Shown here: positions 1-6,183 of the stretch, piece after piece
Layout: each line of letters begins with the position of its first letter
How positions within the stretch are numbered: position 1 is the first letter of the stretch
Virus record (IMG/VR): IMGVR_UViG_2617270985_000007
DNA length: 6,183 bases
DNA from: a virus
Taxonomy: Duplodnaviria; Heunggongvirae; Uroviricota; Caudoviricetes
Direction: 5' to 3' (one strand)
The notes under the pieces: model-generated
Databases searched by the model: none
The model's input: the letters and a program-made list of their open reading frames with translations, nothing else
What the model was told of the DNA's origin: nothing
Translations under genes and position numbers: made by a program

Positions 1-1131
1 TCAAATGACCAGTTTTTTCCATTCCTTACCGCGTGCGTCGTTGTAAATATCGGTCATTTTTTGATTCGAATGGCCCAGCAAAATTTTGGTATCAACCCCC
101 TGCTCTCTGAACAATCGCTCTGATAAAGATCTCTGCTCATGGAAAGAGGGTGGGGTGCCATTAGCACGCCAGTTGTAATCCACAGAATCCCGGGCTTTTT
201 TAAATGCAACGGTTAATGTTGCTGGCTTAACCATCCCGCCGCGCTTAGCTGTCCCTTTCGCGTGATGGTGGTGCAATAGCCACGGACTAAGAACGCAATC
301 GCGGCAGGATGACACCACATCATCTAGGGTGAGATTTAATTTATCGCAACGCAGAGCCAGAGGGATGGCAATCCGGGTTCCTGTTTTTTGCTGTTCGACA
401 TGAAGATAACCATCCCGGATATCCGAAAATTGCATTTTGCAAATATCTGAAAGGCGCTGGCCTGTCATCAGTGCCAGCAGCATACCGCGCTGTAAAAAGT
501 AACCATCCTTTTCCGCTGCGTTATAAATCATCATCCACTCATCAAAAGTCAGTCGCTGTCTTGATATCCGCACCTGCGGTTTTTTTGCCGATTCTGCAGG
601 GTTAAAGCCTGGCGGGACATCGCCCGTTTGCTGAGCTTCCCGGAAAACATCGATCAGTACCTTCCTGAAAATTTGTCCCATTCTGTTATGTCCTCTGGCC
701 TTGTACTCTTCCAGTACTGATACCACATCTTTTACGGTTATGGCATCTAACGGTCTGGTGCCAAAACGTTCATCAAATACCCTGAGAGGGGCCGCTTTCT
801 GTTTCAGCGTGTTGAGTTTGATCTCGCCGTTTTCATATCTTTCCTGTTGAATTTTTCTGTAATTATTCAGAAAAATGGTAACGGTTGATGAACCGCCGGT
901 ATCACTAATAATTTTCTCCTGCAGACTGAGCATTTGTTCCATTTGCTGCCGGGCAAGACGGCTGTTCGCTTCTGCTGCAATAGTTTCTGCCAGTTTCTGG
1001 TCAATACTGCCGAGACCGTGATTTTTTCCTGTTATGGGATGCCTGTAACGCCAGTAAACTTTGTTATTTCTTTTGTCAAAATACGGAGATAATCCCGGAA
1101 CATTGGTTTTATATTTTCGCGGGCGCGCCAT
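1..1131 (-). CDS. int: Lambda-family tyrosine recombinase (prophage integrase), 376 aa
   Basis: Full-length ORF whose translation aligns by eye along its length with lambda Int: N-terminal arm-binding region (RHPITGKNHGLG vs lambda RDPRTGKEFGLG), catalytic-core blocks LMTGQRLSDICKMQFSDIRDGYLHVEQQKTGTRIAIP, TPPSFHEQRSLSERL, LLGH, and a C-terminal Tyr in MTDIYNDARGKEWKKL. A GAGGA Shine-Dalgarno lies about 9 nt upstream of the ATG at 1131. The 5' end is overlapped by the upstream xis ORF, as in lambda. Confidence 0.95.
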   Translation of the reverse strand: MARPRKYKTNVPGLSPYFDKRNNKVYWRYRHPITGKNHGLGSIDQKLAETIAAEANSRLARQQMEQMLSLQEKIISDTGGSSTVTIFLNNYRKIQQERYENGEIKLNTLKQKAAPLRVFDERFGTRPLDAITVKDVVSVLEEYKARGHNRMGQIFRKVLIDVFREAQQTGDVPPGFNPAESAKKPQVRISRQRLTFDEWMMIYNAAEKDGYFLQRGMLLALMTGQRLSDICKMQFSDIRDGYLHVEQQKTGTRIAIPLALRCDKLNLTLDDVVSSCRDCVLSPWLLHHHHAKGTAKRGGMVKPATLTVAFKKARDSVDYNWRANGTPPSFHEQRSLSERLFREQGVDTKILLGHSNQKMTDIYNDARGKEWKKLVI

Positions 1132-1357
1132 CTTCCAGTATCCTCTTCAAAGCAGGGTGATCTGTGGCGATCACCTCCGGCTTGTTTACCATTCCGACAA
1201 AGCGAGCTTGCGGATCCACTCGCCAGCGTCTTCCAACTTTTTTGGGGAGAGGAAATATCATTCCGGCTTTAGCGTATTTACTTAACGTACTCGGAGTTGG
1301 GACCGGTTCACTGAATTCCTCTTTTGCCCACTCAGTGAGCAGAATAAGTCTTGCCAT
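1109..1357 (-). CDS. xis: Excisionase (Xis-like recombination directionality factor), 82 aa
   Basis: Small ORF immediately upstream of int on the same strand, overlapping its start by 23 nt. It contains the W..(K/R)..GMIFPLPKKVGRRW motif, resembling lambda Xis (W...IFPPPVKDGRE). No strong SD is visible, so the exact start is less certain. Confidence 0.8.
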   Translation of the reverse strand: MARLILLTEWAKEEFSEPVPTPSTLSKYAKAGMIFPLPKKVGRRWRVDPQARFVGMVNKPEVIATDHPALKRILEDGAPAKI

Positions 1358-1421
1358 GAGCGTCGTTCGCTAATCATGGTCGCCGCCACTATAGCTGGTG
1401 GGCAACGACCGGGGTTGAACA

Positions 1422-3893
1422 TTAAAAATCAGCCTGGTTCGGGATCAGTTTTTGCCAGATAACTGAAACGTATTTTGCCTGGTAACGGGCGTCATCAAGT
1501 GCATTATGGCGCTCACCTTCGAATGGAATAGCCGTTCTGGCATCGAAGTCTATGGCTTTCCCCAGCTCAACGATTGTGCGTACATCGCGATCGTTGTAGT
1601 AACGCCACGGGCAGGGGATCCCCTGCCGTTCGTATGAACGGCGCAAAATCGTGTTGTCGAAGTTGGCTCCATTTCCCCAGACCTGAACAAAAAATTCACC
1701 GGAGTTTTCGTCGATAAATTCCCGCAATTGTAACAGTGCATCATCTAACGGGATTTCATCGGTCATAATGGCAGACTGCGCTTCACGTGATTGCTTCAGC
1801 CACCTTTTAATGACGTCACGATCAATGACTCCGCCAGCAGTTTCCAGATCGATAGTCTTACTAAATTCCGGTCCCATATCTCCGGTTTGCGGATCGAAAA
1901 ATATTGCACCTATTGAGATAATCGGGGCATCAGGATTTTTTCCCATGGTTTCAAGGTCGATCATTAGATGGTCACACGTCCTGCTGGTGGATGTGATAAC
2001 GTGATGACCGTTCATCGTAATTAAGGGATCTGCCGTCTCGCCAGTTTCACTATCGCTGGCGTGATCCTGAGCGCTACCAGCATTCTCCTTGTGTGGATGT
2101 TCAGCGCCTTCCATTTCCTTCGGATCATTTTCCTGAACTTCAACCTGATTCTCTTCATCGAATGTTTCCTGGTATGTTGCGTCACCCATCACCGCGCCAC
2201 AATCAGGGCAGTTGCCGCCACCGCTTTGACCGCAGGCGGTGCAGACTTTTTCCGGTTCCTGTTGCGCTACTGGCTCAGGTTGTTTCGTTTCTGGCTCGTT
2301 TTGTTGCGTATTTGGGCTGTTTTGTTCCGCTTTCTGGTCGTTCTGTTCCGATTCTTGCTGGTTCTGGTTTACAGAATCGCGGGTTTCAATCCCCTTTACC
2401 CATTTCGGATCATTCGGGTCGCTAATCCCTGCAACAAATTCTCCGCGAGAGGCAGCAAGCAACTTATCGGCGTCAGGCTGGCTGATATTGGCTGCCTGCA
2501 TAATTTTGTTTACTTCGTCAGCGGTAACTTTTACCGGCTCTGGTTGTGCGGTCGTGTCAGATGCACCAGTATTTTGTTGTGAACCTGAGTACGTGCCGTT
2601 TTTACGTGCGAAGTATTCCTCTTTTGTGATTTCCGTAGCTCCCAAGGCTAGTGCTTTTTCCAGACCAGAAAGTTTGTTTGCGCGACCGTATTTTTCGCCA
2701 TCCTTGTCGGTGAAGAGGAAGTAGAACGGCCCCTCACGCTCTACAGATGGTTCGACTTCCACTTTGCATTCGGTTTTTTCGTTGCCCGGAATTGCCGTTT
2801 CCACTGCATCAGTTTCTGGTACTGGCGACGAGAGAGTATCAGTTGCGCTCTGATTTCTTCCTTCATCTTCAAACACGCCCTTTGTAGTCAGGTATTCAGT
2901 AATGTATTTGTTCAGTGCCACAGGGTCTTTGTGAATGTCGATCGGACGTTCACGGACAAGGCCAAAAATAGTCTGGCGGTCGTAGCGAAGGGCATCAGGC
3001 TGTTTGCGCATTGATGCCGAGATACGCTTCCAGTCTTCGCGGTCGTTGTCGATAACTTCATTTTTTGCCCAGCGATGGATGCTGCCGTCAATGTTTCCGG
3101 CATCCACATCACCAGGCCAGAGAGCGTAGGCCAGTTCGTCATCCAGTGTTTTCCATGTCTGCTTGTATTCGCGATGAATGGCAGCAATGACCGGGCTGAT
3201 TTTTCCTGTTGAATTTTCAGTGTACTGTTGATTGGCTCTGGCGCGGGCGAGATCAACAACAGACGTGTATTTTCCGGTTTCCTTGCGTTCACCTTCGCGA
3301 CGTTTTTTCCAGATGCGCATCTCTGCCTGAATTTCGGGCCATTTAGCACCAGGAATACATTTATGCTTAACCCACCCAATGGCGTGCAACTTAAGCTCCG
3401 GATACATGGCGTTAACTTCTGGCATTTTCATCAACGCTTCAACGATATGTCCGTCGAATGTTGCCATGTCTTCCTGCAACAATTCCTGTGCGCTAATAAC
3501 CATATCAACGGTGATGTTTTCACATGTGTCGAACTTAACCATGACAGCGTTCTGTACTTCAGGGGCCAGCTTGTCAAAAGTGACGTTCATCGGATCGGAT
3601 TCAGTCTCAACCGGGACAAAAGATGCAGACTCCTCATCCCAGCGGTTTTCCTGCATATATTCAGCATCCCATGAATCGAGGGCTGGGCGGGGTATGCCAG
3701 GTTTATCCTCGCAGATAATAAATTTATAAGCGCAGTCCTGAGCAGCCGGATAATGTTCCAGGAACTGCCAGTGAAATTTTGCTCGAGCACGGCGTTCGTC
3801 GCCAGCTTCAATGGCTGTGGCTACAGCCACCGCGCTTTCTTCCCTTGTTGCCAGTTCGTCAGGAATAGCGGCGCAAATAAAGACTTTACTCAT
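1422..3893 (-). CDS. Prophage exonuclease, 823 aa: N-terminal region of the kind usually annotated exodeoxyribonuclease VIII-like, a C4 zinc ribbon, and a C-terminal DnaQ/PolIII-epsilon-like DEDDh 3'-5' exonuclease domain
   Basis: Long uninterrupted ORF upstream of xis in the pL-operon orientation. The C-terminal ~185 aa carry the three DEDDh motifs: Exo I MIDLETMG, Exo II VWGNGANFDNTIL, Exo III HNALDDARYQAKY. CTACGQSGGGNCPDCG (aa 551-566) is a C-x2-C-x7-C-x2-C zinc ribbon. Acidic Q/E/P-rich linkers flank the ribbon. A GAGG lies about 10 nt upstream of the ATG at 3893. Confidence 0.9.
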   Translation of the reverse strand: MSKVFICAAIPDELATREESAVAVATAIEAGDERRARAKFHWQFLEHYPAAQDCAYKFIICEDKPGIPRPALDSWDAEYMQENRWDEESASFVPVETESDPMNVTFDKLAPEVQNAVMVKFDTCENITVDMVISAQELLQEDMATFDGHIVEALMKMPEVNAMYPELKLHAIGWVKHKCIPGAKWPEIQAEMRIWKKRREGERKETGKYTSVVDLARARANQQYTENSTGKISPVIAAIHREYKQTWKTLDDELAYALWPGDVDAGNIDGSIHRWAKNEVIDNDREDWKRISASMRKQPDALRYDRQTIFGLVRERPIDIHKDPVALNKYITEYLTTKGVFEDEGRNQSATDTLSSPVPETDAVETAIPGNEKTECKVEVEPSVEREGPFYFLFTDKDGEKYGRANKLSGLEKALALGATEITKEEYFARKNGTYSGSQQNTGASDTTAQPEPVKVTADEVNKIMQAANISQPDADKLLAASRGEFVAGISDPNDPKWVKGIETRDSVNQNQQESEQNDQKAEQNSPNTQQNEPETKQPEPVAQQEPEKVCTACGQSGGGNCPDCGAVMGDATYQETFDEENQVEVQENDPKEMEGAEHPHKENAGSAQDHASDSETGETADPLITMNGHHVITSTSRTCDHLMIDLETMGKNPDAPIISIGAIFFDPQTGDMGPEFSKTIDLETAGGVIDRDVIKRWLKQSREAQSAIMTDEIPLDDALLQLREFIDENSGEFFVQVWGNGANFDNTILRRSYERQGIPCPWRYYNDRDVRTIVELGKAIDFDARTAIPFEGERHNALDDARYQAKYVSVIWQKLIPNQADF

Positions 3894-3986
3894 TTTGTTT
3901 TAACCTCATGACAGATTTAAGGATGAACAAATCCCTGCCATTGCTGGCATATAAGAATGAAACCGGATATTTATTACGGAACTGTT

Positions 3987-4178
3987 TTAAAGACCTGCCG
4001 GGATTTCGATATTATCCTGGTGAATAACTTTATCGACCGGGTAACAGTTACCGGGAATTTTCTGTTCGGTTGCTGCAGTCATACACTCCTGCATTGTCCT
4101 GTGAACACTGACTGCAATATCAACTGGCTCTCCGGAAACAAGAAAAACTGTCAGAACAAGCGCAAATGCTGAATTCAT
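3987..4178 (-). CDS. Hypothetical small protein (63 aa) with an N-terminal hydrophobic signal-peptide or transmembrane segment; function unknown
   Basis: ATG at 4176-4178 (minus strand) is preceded by AGGA with about 8 nt spacing and overlaps the stop of the upstream ORF in an ATGA arrangement. The translation MNSAFALVLTVFLVSGEPVD... has a hydrophobic N-terminus followed by a polar region with two Cys. The six-frame track extends this ORF to 4232 (81 aa), but that start lacks an SD and would overlap the upstream ORF by 58 nt. Confidence 0.5.
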   Translation of the reverse strand: MNSAFALVLTVFLVSGEPVDIAVSVHRTMQECMTAATEQKIPGNCYPVDKVIHQDNIEIPAGL

Positions 4179-4363
4179 TGTGCACATCCTTTTGGCATCA
4201 GACGTAAACGAGCCAGCATTGAAACAATGCATATTTTATTTAATAGCTCCCGTTCTTGTTTTCTCTTGTTAATGGCATCTTCAGTAAATACAGGGTTACT
4301 GATAGTGACACCAATTTCAAAACAACCTTCAGACGTATTAACGTTTGGTAATAACGTTTTCAT
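4175..4363 (-). CDS. Hypothetical small protein (62 aa), basic central region (KRKQERELLNK); function unknown
   Basis: ATG at 4361-4363 (minus strand) is preceded by GAGGA with 7 nt spacing. Its stop overlaps the start of the downstream small ORF (ATGA coupling). Same strand and orientation as the exo-xis-int operon. No recognisable domain by eye. Confidence 0.45.
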   Translation of the reverse strand: MKTLLPNVNTSEGCFEIGVTISNPVFTEDAINKRKQERELLNKICIVSMLARLRLMPKGCAQ

Positions 4364-4462
4364 TATCGCGTCCTCAACAATGAATTTTGTGATGCAGTGC
4401 CTGGTGCCTCCAGGTGACGTTAACCAGTTAACAATTAACGCCGGATACCTTCTGCCCGTAAG

Positions 4463-5599
4463 GTGAATGGTAAGGCGCTTTCAGCGGATATAACACTGAC
4501 GCCGAAAGATATTGGTACGCTTAACTCAACAACAATGTCATTCAGCGGTGGTGCTGGTTGGTTCAAATTAGCAACGGTAACCATGCCACAGGCGAGTTCT
4601 GTTGTTTCAATTACGTTGATTGGTGGCGCGGGATTTAACGTGGGGTCACCTCAACAGGCAGGTATATCTGAACTTGTTTTGCGTGCAGGTAATGGTAATC
4701 CGAAGGGGATTACTGGTGCTTTATGGCAGCGCACATCGACAGGGTTTACAAATTTTGCCTGGGTCAATACATCTGGTGATACTTACGATATTTACGTTGC
4801 AATCGGAAATTATGCGACTGGTGTAAATATTCAATGGGATTATACCAGTAATGCCAGCGTGACGATTCATACGTCACCAGCATATTCTGCTAATAAGCCG
4901 GAAGGGTTAACGGACGGTACAGTTTATTCACTCTATACGCCATCAGAGCAGTTTTATCCGCCTGGCGCACCAATCCCGTGGCCATCAGATACCGTTCCGT
5001 CTGGTTATGCCCTGATGCAGGGGCAGAGTTTTGACAAATCTGCTTACCCGAAACTTGCAACCGCTTATCCGTCAGGCGTGATCCCTGATATGCGTGGCTG
5101 GACGATTAAGGGCAAACCTGCCAGTGGTCGGGCCGTATTGTCTCAGGAACAGGACGGCATTAAATCGCACACCCACAGCGCCAGCGCATCCAGTACGGAT
5201 TTGGGGACGAAAACCACATCGTCGTTTGATTACGGCACTAAATCCACGAATAACACCGGGGCGCATACGCACAGTGTGAGCGGTACAGCCGCAAGTGCCG
5301 GAAACCATACTCATAGTGTCACAGGCGCATCAGCAGTCAGCCAGTGGTCACAAAATGGGTCAGTACATAAGGTAGTGTCTGCGGCCAGTGTGAATACAAG
5401 TGCTGCAGGAGCGCACACTCATAGTGTCAGCGGCACAGCTGCATCTGCAGGTGCTCACGCACATACTGTCGGTATTGGTGCTCATACGCACTCTGTTGCG
5501 ATTGGCTCACATGGACACACCATCACCGTTAACGCTGCTGGTAACGCGGAAAACACCGTCAAAAACATCGCATTTAACTACATTGTGAGGCTTGCATAA
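4463..5599 (+). CDS. stf: Side tail fibre protein, C-terminal receptor-binding module (378 aa as drawn); probably a 5'-truncated gene fragment
   Basis: Translation contains the conserved phage fibre-tip block [48 protein letters not shown], followed by repeated H-x-H motifs (HTHS x4, HAHT, HGHT) typical of T4 gp12/gp37-like and lambdoid Stf tips. The ORF opens with GTG at 4463 immediately after an in-frame TAA (4460-4462) and has no SD, so this is likely the 3' part of a formerly longer gene. The first in-frame ATG is at about 4535. Confidence 0.8.
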
Positions 5600-6183
5600 T
5601 GGCATTCAGAATGAGTGAACAACCACGGACCATAAAAATTTATAATCTGCTGGCCGGAACTAATGAATTTATTGGTGAAGGTGACGCATATATTCCGCCT
5701 CATACAGGTCTGCCAGCAAACAGTACCTATATTGCACCGCCAGATATTCCGGCAGGCTTCGTGGCTGTTTTCAACAGTGATGAGTCATCGTGGCATCTCG
5801 TTGAAGATCATCGGGGTAAAACGGTTTATGACGTGGCTTCCGGCGACGCGTTATTTATTTCTGAACTCGGCTCATTACCGGAAAATGTCACCTGGTTATC
5901 CCCGGAAGGGGAGTTTCAGAAGTGGAACGGCACAGCCTGGGTGAAAGATGCAGAAGCAGAAAAACTGTTCCGGATCCGGGAGGCGGAAGAAACAAAAAAC
6001 AGCCTGATGCAGGTAGCCAGTGAGCATATTGCGCCGCTTCAGGATGCTGCAGATCTGGAAATTGCAACGGAGGAAGAAACCTCATTGCTGGAAGCCTGGA
6101 AAAAGTATCGGGTGTTGCTGAACCGTGTTGATACATCAACTGCACCTGATATTGAGTGGCCTACGAACCCTGTCAGGGAGTAA
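5599..6183 (+). CDS. tfa: Tail fibre assembly protein (Tfa family chaperone), 194 aa
   Basis: Complete ORF starting [39 protein letters not shown]..., which matches the N-terminal signature of enterobacterial lambdoid Tfa proteins as I recall them (TfaQ/TfaR-like). A GAGG lies 8 nt upstream. The start ATG overlaps the stf stop (TAATG at 5597-5601), the canonical stf-tfa coupling. The stop TAA is the last three bases of the window. Confidence 0.93.

Follow-up and report, generated by a model that had tools for sequence, protein, structure and literature searches.

While analysing a 6,183-nucleotide stretch of caudoviricete DNA (IMG/VR record IMGVR_UViG_2617270985_000007; hereafter the window), we identified a recurrent breakpoint in the side tail fibre gene stf of lambdoid prophages: one exact position collects most truncations of this common fibre gene, with the same side kept, across unrelated prophage types. 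In the window this breakpoint joins the early-left arm of a prophage, which carries the integrase and excisionase genes int and xis, an exonuclease gene, ydfD and dicB, to the 3' part of stf (stf') and the fibre chaperone gene tfa. The window itself is an ordinary cryptic remnant, but its breakpoint is not ordinary. On balance we read the window as a chimeric, non-functional cryptic prophage remnant, made of Qin/PPompW-type and Rac-site parts that were joined at the nucleotide-exact stf hotspot. More tentatively, we suggest that GGG-TA-CC, along with the sequence to its right in the module shared by lambdoid stf and P2-like H genes, might be the target of a putative site-specific nuclease, recombinase or topoisomerase that truncates prophages directionally while sparing the fibre tip and its chaperone. 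Our literature searches recovered no description of an stf deletion hotspot or of the assembly from which the window comes.

A nucleotide-exact breakpoint recurs in stf

On its stf side the breakpoint of the window reads GGG-TA-CCTTCTGCCCG, and the site as it stands in stf reads ...AATGGTCGGG-TA-CCTTCTGCCCGTAAGG... (in protein, ...NGRV and then 12 further residues). Alignment revealed that the window, a DLP12-like remnant of FORC_081 (terminase A'/stf') and the Qin remnant of strain 97.3 (nohQ'/stf') all end at the same stf nucleotide. When IMG/VR was scanned with the 22 nt that follow the junction on its right, 119 loci were recovered, about 98 of which have the normal left flank ...AATGGTCGGGTAC; in the others, about 20 further left flanks, mutually unrelated, abut the same stf position. 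Each IMG/VR copy of this 22-mer is preceded by AC, and complementary scans show that the list of flanks is essentially complete. Three further junctions came from metagenomes, and partners in gpJ' and in a portal gene from finished genomes, giving a total of at least 24 distinct junctions at one stf position, including that of the window. Totals of intact and truncated copies in finished genomes varied from search to search and do not enter this number. We regard the existence of the hotspot as nearly certain. The right-hand endpoint of the window is not arbitrary.

The partners belong to lambda-, Rac-, DLP12-, Qin-, HK97- and P2-like prophages, which use different integrases, and their left endpoints span the lambda map from nu1 to the early-left region. 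These endpoints fall in nu1, A, the portal gene, a prohead gene, H, L/K, J (three places), lom and the stf N-terminus (two places), in bor, the cos region, ynaK (two places) and codon 3 of a P2-type H gene, and in the lambda early-left region and, in the window, the dicB-DicF spacer. The case in the lambda early-left region (IMGVR_UViG_2939152649_000004, here L021; junction at 4816 in minus orientation) is a true lambda prophage with an att core and with int and xis 98.5% identical to those of lambda. Here the deletion runs from orf60a/exo (lambda 31259) directly to the hotspot nucleotide of stf, so that the prophage reads int-xis...orf60a/stf'-tfa and independently displays the architecture of the window. 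In the P2-like case (L123; parents L039, L047 and L120) the hotspot is fused to codon 3 of the tail-fibre gene H (ATGAGTAC/C), and the C-terminal module together with its 30-nt left flank is common to lambdoid stf and P2-type H genes.

Within the same loci, which offer about 1.8 kb of the N-terminal part of stf (stf-N), all other truncations of the gene are singletons, at -107, -258 and -742 relative to the site. Intact alleles are conserved from -125 to +775 around it, a block of 900 nt. We therefore rejected the possibility that the breakpoint is merely the boundary of a mosaic module: conservation runs through the site and the left half-site never precedes another fibre sequence. A fold at the site was likewise rejected as an explanation, as no hairpin was better than those of shuffled sequences.

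A separate observation concerns one DLP12-like element (PapRG-04-4, L276), in which positions 136-2707 carry nohD, 903 nt of terminase A, 477 nt of gpJ and then stf' at the hotspot. This stacked remnant shows that successive deletions have occurred in a single element. The Qin prophage of K-12 was considered as a textbook example of the hotspot and rejected, as its nohA/stfQ junction differs and the hotspot sequence is absent. In K-12 MG1655 (L273, 1631000-1638500) nohA and stfQ overlap at another junction, and this Qin has thus been truncated differently from the Qin remnant of strain 97.3 (L004).

Rules of the exchange

To characterize the exchange we recovered uninterrupted parents, which were available for 18 partners. 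In every case the point at which partner sequence gives way to stf sequence can be assigned to G^T^A^C^C, with a microhomology at the junctions of 0-8 nt (median 2.5; TAC in the window). TA is present at the aligned position in 14 of the 18 recovered parents (p = 3e-14). The base to the left of the T is that of the partner in eight of nine informative cases, the single exception being one for which only a 95% identical parent is available, and the base to the right of the A is that of stf in all 12 informative cases. The similarity extends imperfectly beyond the dinucleotide, with G at -2 in 17, G at -3 in 12 and C at -4 in 11 of the 24 left flanks, and C at +2 in 12 of the 18 parents. The exchange hence behaves like one on a 2-nt TA core with imperfect similarity to GG-TA-CC.

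As the partners resemble stf on both sides of the core, the stf sequence must have been intact when the events occurred. This bears on the idea that an insertion sequence (IS) once occupied the site and was removed with variable stretches of flank by a transposase- or IEE-dependent process. Excision dependent on IEE, studied with IS629, does yield deletions with microhomology (PMC9943667; bioRxiv 10.1101/2023.06.07.543989). Such deletions, and those produced by microhomology-mediated end joining in E. coli, are similar to the ones described here in their microhomology of 0-8 nt and in being large and one-sided. They differ in that the stf site bears neither an IS nor a trace of one and that an intact coding module surrounds the endpoint. 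In six pattern scans of IMG/VR and one of the Joint Genome Institute (JGI) metagenomes, neither side of the site was directly flanked by an IS, and the hotspot operates in many unrelated prophages. Given that the site was uninterrupted at the time of the events, we consider a former IS a very improbable source of the hotspot.

The second rule is that of one-sidedness: foreign joins occur on the C-terminal side of stf (stf-C) only, and no junction of stf-N to foreign sequence was found in any examined locus or in IMG/VR. Most partners are in direct orientation and two are inverted, namely a prohead/capsid gene (L037, left flank -2419..-299) and a portal gene (L277, 1024-1509); for neither of these two was the reciprocal stf-N junction present in the DNA examined. 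The TA core, the one-sidedness, the occurrence of both orientations and the differing integrases together point to break-and-join on a 2-nt core rather than to replication slippage. The same features indicate a determinant in the stf site itself, probably in its right side, together with a host or trans-acting factor, and an intrinsic polarity.

Possible mechanisms

From the products we infer an initiating break and the choice of the strand that is broken. In the mechanism that we consider most likely, a site-specific nick or staggered break would arise in the TA of the stf sequence, and the stf-C side of the break would survive, either because protein is bound to it or because it is the template side that stays unbroken when a replication fork collapses. 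This side would then be joined to, or primed from, another DNA (3') end, with the stf-N side being lost entirely, and a few bases that imperfectly resemble cGGG-TA-cC would decide the choice of partner. Such a course of events would fit the co-orientation of late operons with replication and a variable, RecBCD-like loss on the origin-proximal side. The reciprocal product, if formed, would read ...AGTCTA or stf-N...GGGTA joined to CAGAGAATCC. A further candidate for the enzyme is a free-standing, homing-endonuclease-like protein that leaves 2-nt overhangs.

A serine recombinase might also be responsible, be it an invertase of the Pin/Cin/Gin type, whose gene adjoins tfa in Rac, Qin and e14, or a different member of the family, small or large, with stf providing the true site and the partners providing quasi-sites across a TA core. 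The 2-nt core behaviour, the tolerance of single core mismatches and the presence of both orientations are in keeping with this, and pinQ lies directly after tfaQ in two of the loci (L004 and L278). Cin, according to work attributed to Iida and Hiestand-Nauer, reportedly uses quasi-sites that share the central dinucleotide. However, the pix sites of e14 read TTCTCCCAAACC-AA-GGTTTGGGAGAA, and the stf site shares neither their half-sites nor their AA core. It is palindromic no further than GGTACC, there is no inverted partner site near tfa or pin and no pin gene at the source locus, and the quasi-sites resemble it over only about 6 nt. We therefore consider a serine recombinase unlikely. In its strict form, as an invertible segment of the Din family (Pin/Gin/Cin/Hin), we rejected it, since the 26-bp TTCTCNNAAACC-NN-GGTTTNNGAGAA site, the inverted partner and, at the source locus, the adjacent invertase are all missing. 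Both the quasi-site recombination of Cin, Gin and Pin and the deletions promoted by lambda Int (b2 type) are reminiscent of the hotspot in having one fixed and one variable endpoint and partners that share only the core bases. In contrast to these systems, the fixed point in stf is not an att core, the integrases differ between the prophages, and there is no resemblance to Din-family crossover sites.

Another way of obtaining such junctions would be a strong cleavage site for gyrase or topoisomerase IV, at which abortive or quinolone-stabilised complexes lead to subunit exchange of the Ikeda type or to break repair. Every exchange lies inside the 4-nt GTAC, and a cut before the G, with the C as the last base of a 4-nt stagger, fits the G-N-N-C preference of quinolone-stabilised cleavage (PMC6379681). 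Protein-linked 5' ends would protect an end, and both orientations and distant partners would be expected. On the other hand, a 4-nt heteroduplex predicts tetranucleotides derived wholly from stf or wholly from the partner, whereas at least seven junctions are mixed, with the partner's base at position 1 and that of stf at position 4. The G-N-N-C pattern is met by one position in 16, and retention of one side is not predicted. Thus, this too appears to be an unlikely explanation.

Finally, the junction of the window might be an artefact of assembly or of the library, or the truncations might arise from self-targeting of the fibre gene by CRISPR-Cas3. For an artefact speaks the occurrence of the junction in a single draft assembly. 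Yet the parents share only TAC at the junction, and an overlap of 3 nt is too short for a k-mer assembler to have made the join; a random chimera would also not be expected to hit a hotspot that is defined from independent genomes. As for CRISPR, Cas3 deletes unidirectionally, and type I-E protospacer-adjacent motifs (PAMs; AAG, ATG) are located on the right of the site, at a distance of 12-26 nt. E. coli spacers matching prophage tail fibre genes have been described (PMC2886076). Deletions by Cas3, nevertheless, have heterogeneous starts and are not nucleotide-exact, and three PAM-proximal candidate spacers from one strand, sought between type I-E repeats, matched none of 5,426 complete E. 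coli genomes over their full length. We give this pair of explanations hardly any weight.

Two prophages probably contributed the arms of the window

A megablast search against the same 5,426 genomes and against phage records splits the window at 4442-4448, with the left homology stopping at 4448 and the right homology beginning at 4442-4446. The early-left arm of prophages integrated at ompW (PPompW; Qin-like) matches positions 1-4448 at 96-99% identity. In one such prophage that is intact (ST648, L257) the left breakpoint lies 85 nt past dicB, the sequence reads on as AGAGAATCC beyond the point corresponding to window position 4448, and the DicF RNA is found 90 nt further on; about 41 kb separate the positions of the two breakpoints in this full PPompW prophage. 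Qin of K-12 and PPompW at ompW (LC567822; ST648 chromosome CP008697) share with the window the ompW-adjacent order int-xis-ydfE-type exonuclease-ydfD-dicB at 96-99% DNA identity. In these prophages DicF, ydfC/B/A and the immunity, replication, lysis and morphogenesis genes come next, whereas the arm in the window ends 85 nt past dicB.

From 4442 onwards the window matches the C-terminal part of stf and tfa. The exact 823-residue exonuclease-domain protein of the window is found on a single contig, JNQK01000016.1 of the E. coli assembly GCA_000703965.1, which has the order ...oppF-cls-kch-tonB-yciABC-ompW / int xis exo ydfD dicB / stf' tfa / sitDCBA-uspF-ompN-ydbK. The sequence that follows sitA on this contig can be aligned, at 98.9% identity, with the right end of Rac in K-12, ttcC, uspF and ompN. 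Between the stf' of the window and the Rac-site stf genes of F163 and sister strains, identity is 99.3-99.9%, and in F163 the matching right arm (99.3%) closes a complete Rac-site prophage with a full-length stf. Eleven sister assemblies (JNQM01000003 and ten others) encode an identical 378-residue Stf', and the right arm differs from their Rac-site copy by one single-nucleotide polymorphism (SNP) in 6.4 kb; their left partner is the trkG-ynaK' region of their own Rac and not the arm of an ompW prophage. The sitABCD prophage at the Rac site (ttcA) in F163 and JNQM01000003 is thus like the window across stf-C, tfa, sitDCBA, ttcC, uspF and ompN (99.3-99.9% identity). It is unlike it in that F163 has a full-length stf and a complete tail module and the sister strains have a trkG-ynaK'/stf' junction at the same nucleotide. 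These relationships show that the left arm is the attL side of a prophage integrated at ompW and that the right arm is the attR end of a sitABCD prophage at the Rac (ttcA) site. In the uspF-ompN spacer of the source strain (L260, 16486-16517) we also noted nine mismatches in 32 nt that are private to it against three near-identical relatives; these could be a small patch of conversion or inversion, or a local assembly error.

The preliminary description had proposed a large internal deletion in one prophage. A deletion-type junction is indeed present, and the arms are joined in direct orientation as ordered in the K-12 map, with int reading leftward and stf-tfa rightward, but the flanks derive from two different prophages. 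Attachment sites do lie on both sides, attL at ompW and attR at Rac, but they are not a matching pair: ompW stands on the left and the Rac attR (ttcC) with uspF-ompN on the right, although the contig path through stf'-tfa may be mis-resolved. The remnant is unable to excise because of this mismatch. Beyond tfa the flank is sitDCBA-uspF-ompN-ydbK, and the morphogenesis and lysis genes, which might have lain there, do not. A native phage gene order was rejected as well, since in maps of phages and tandem prophages tfa precedes attP-int convergently, opposite to the order in the window. Matches of apparently full coverage at 80-89% identity proved to be tandem prophages at ompW, with the tfa of one followed by the int of the next, and do not contain the window junction. 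This dicB/stf' junction is known from one draft genome only and is absent from the 5,426 complete E. coli genomes, the GTDB representatives, IMG/VR and the JGI metagenomes. The remnant is probably recent, strain-specific and inert.

Several considerations weigh against the account developed so far. The count of 24 junctions comes from searches anchored on this very stf site, and the rate at the site relative to all other prophage positions is drawn from about 120 loci. For two partners (L011 and L021) the TA rule holds only on the assumption that the true parents are not the same as the available ones (95-96% identical), and junctions of stf-N to foreign sequence could be under-sampled, being a smaller target. 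The break is deduced from its products, with the enzyme and the nick both putative. Lastly, the contig puts ompW and uspF 11 kb apart. Taken literally it has lost more than 100 kb, comprising most of both prophages and the ompW-Rac interval with its essential genes, and part of the contig-level picture must be incomplete. In K-12 the chromosome between ompW and ttcA, about 97 kb long, holds the essential genes topA, ribA, lapB and fabI, and for this reason the literal contig cannot be the whole truth for a viable isolate. Either the ompW-ttcA interval sits elsewhere in the genome, or the long-range path of the contig is wrong, with a second identical stf'-tfa having been left by the wrong exit of a repeat. 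The near-identity to the Rac-site copy favours real linkage, and the lethality argument favours a mis-resolved repeat.

The latter possibility would allow a deletion within a single prophage: an ompW prophage with its own, Rac-identical stf-tfa would have lost the approximately 41 kb between dicB and stf, and the assembler would have left the 1.7-kb repeat by the wrong exit, towards sitD. The hotspot would still have been used. The suspect long-range path, the presence of the same architecture inside one true lambda prophage (L021) and a private SNP at +416 of stf', which could hint at a second copy, are consistent with this. However, the stf'-tfa of the window is separated by only the one SNP in 6.4 kb from the Rac-site copy of the sister strains, the stf-tfa of other ompW-site prophages is merely 89-98% identical, and a repeat of such length usually breaks a short-read contig rather than being bridged. 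We hence consider a deletion within one prophage improbable, though it deserves to be kept in mind, and retain the two-prophage chimera as the preferred origin.

Implications for prophage decay

Models of prophage decay usually invoke random deletion filtered through selection, and tail-fibre genes that persist are taken to be 'domesticated'. The hotspot suggests that the retention of stf-C and tfa in many cryptic prophages (DLP12-like, Qin-like and Rac-like) may be a mechanical by-product and not a benefit to the host. In the window stf-C and tfa are retained because of the polarity of the hotspot, and the notion that the remnant keeps genes of use to its host found no support in our analysis: the event is confined to one draft genome, the junction lacks a promoter on both arms, and dicB has been separated from DicF and its control region. 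If the proposed directional truncation is real, it would constitute a programmed-looking route of prophage decay and chromosome rearrangement that is able to fuse distant prophages, as opposed to random deletion. Were a specific enzyme behind the truncations, it would add a new player to the conflicts of phages with their hosts or with other phages, and large inter-prophage rearrangements would have a source in it. The stf site is short and defined, and can easily be tested in a reporter.

Gene content of the remnant

A six-frame listing of open reading frames (ORFs) combined with Pfam searches identified seven real genes in the window, five on the minus and two on the plus strand (Table 1); all remaining ORFs overlap these seven. 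The arrangement noted from the letters alone, an int-xis-exonuclease arm beside a divergent stf'-tfa with 570 bp between the exonuclease gene and stf', agrees with the ORFs and Pfam domains. These also bear out the reported lack of repressor, replication, lysis, capsid and tail-shaft genes. Immunity, replication, lysis, head and tail-shaft genes are absent both from the window and from the region between ompW and uspF on the contig, and the window contains no tRNA gene. In the source contig ompW lies directly left of int, and an identical Int protein adjoins ompW in thousands of assemblies. With int and xis next to a known attachment site, and with the modules of the productive cycle missing while all of them are present in an intact relative, the window has the properties of a lambdoid prophage remnant.

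Table 1. Features of the 6,183-nt window
Feature	Position	Strand	Description
int	1-1131	minus	Intact lambda-type tyrosine integrase of an ompW-integrating (PPompW/Qin-type) prophage; Pfam Arm-DNA-bind_1 and Phage_integrase
xis	1109-1357	minus	Excisionase, 82 residues; Pfam Exc, E = 1.3e-7; also annotated as excisionase in matching genomes
YdfE-type protein, 823 residues	1422-3893	minus	C-terminal Rv2179c-like DEDDh 3'-5' exonuclease domain, residues 642-813, E = 3e-63 (Pfam)
ydfD (DUF1482)	3987-4178	minus	63 residues as called in the source; longer ORF to 4232; Pfam E = 4e-26
dicB	4175-4363	minus	Cell-division inhibitor, 62 residues; Pfam DicB, E = 2e-40
Left-arm end	4364-4445		82 nt from the spacer between DicF and dicB in the ompW prophage; collinearity with intact prophages extends to 4448
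Junction	4446-4448		TAC common to both parents; TA at 4446-4447 is the recurrent exchange core
stf'	4449-5599	plus	5'-truncated side tail fibre gene, C-terminal 383 codons (receptor-binding tip); Pfam Collar and Phage_fiber
tfa	5599-6183	plus	Intact tail fibre assembly chaperone; start overlaps the stf stop; Pfam Caudo_TAP, E = 7e-45; tfaR in F163

The third gene had been read as 'exo'. It does encode an exonuclease domain, but one of the DEDDh 3'-5' type and not lambda Exo or RecE. The gene call of the source places YdfE_N and YdfE_C domains on the protein, which is the full-length form of ydfE of K-12; the copy in K-12 Qin is interrupted by an IS. We therefore rejected a recombination module of the lambda Red or RecET kind: the domain is Rv2179c-like and not of the YqaJ/lambda-Exo or RecE type, and no annealase (Bet/RecT) gene is present in the window. 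The two small ORFs of the preliminary description are likewise real, and can now be named as the toxic Qin-type genes ydfD and dicB. In the window dicB is without DicF, its own promoter and the dicA/dicC control region. A scan found no promoter-like site reading across the junction into either arm, its single match lying over ydfD on the opposite strand. The reading frame of stf' is open from 4448, with the earliest start being a GTG at 4463.

Some further observations concern the surroundings of the ompW prophages. In OZ038595.1 (L264, 3278-5671) a beta-lactamase gene and a DDE transposase are inserted in the early-left arm of such a prophage, about 600 bp upstream of dicB and about 0.5 kb beyond the point that matches the end of the left arm of the window. 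Two other loci (L268, 14837-16357; L272, 13936-15456) carry a 506-residue large serine recombinase and phage genes inserted beside tonB-yciA, which is thus a further integration hotspot a few kb from the ompW prophage. Within tfa, positions 5942-6140 on the plus strand give a full-length match to the Rfam family RF02111 'IS009' (225.8 bits against a gathering score of 117); what this candidate small RNA family describes is evidently the conserved 3' portion of tfa genes.

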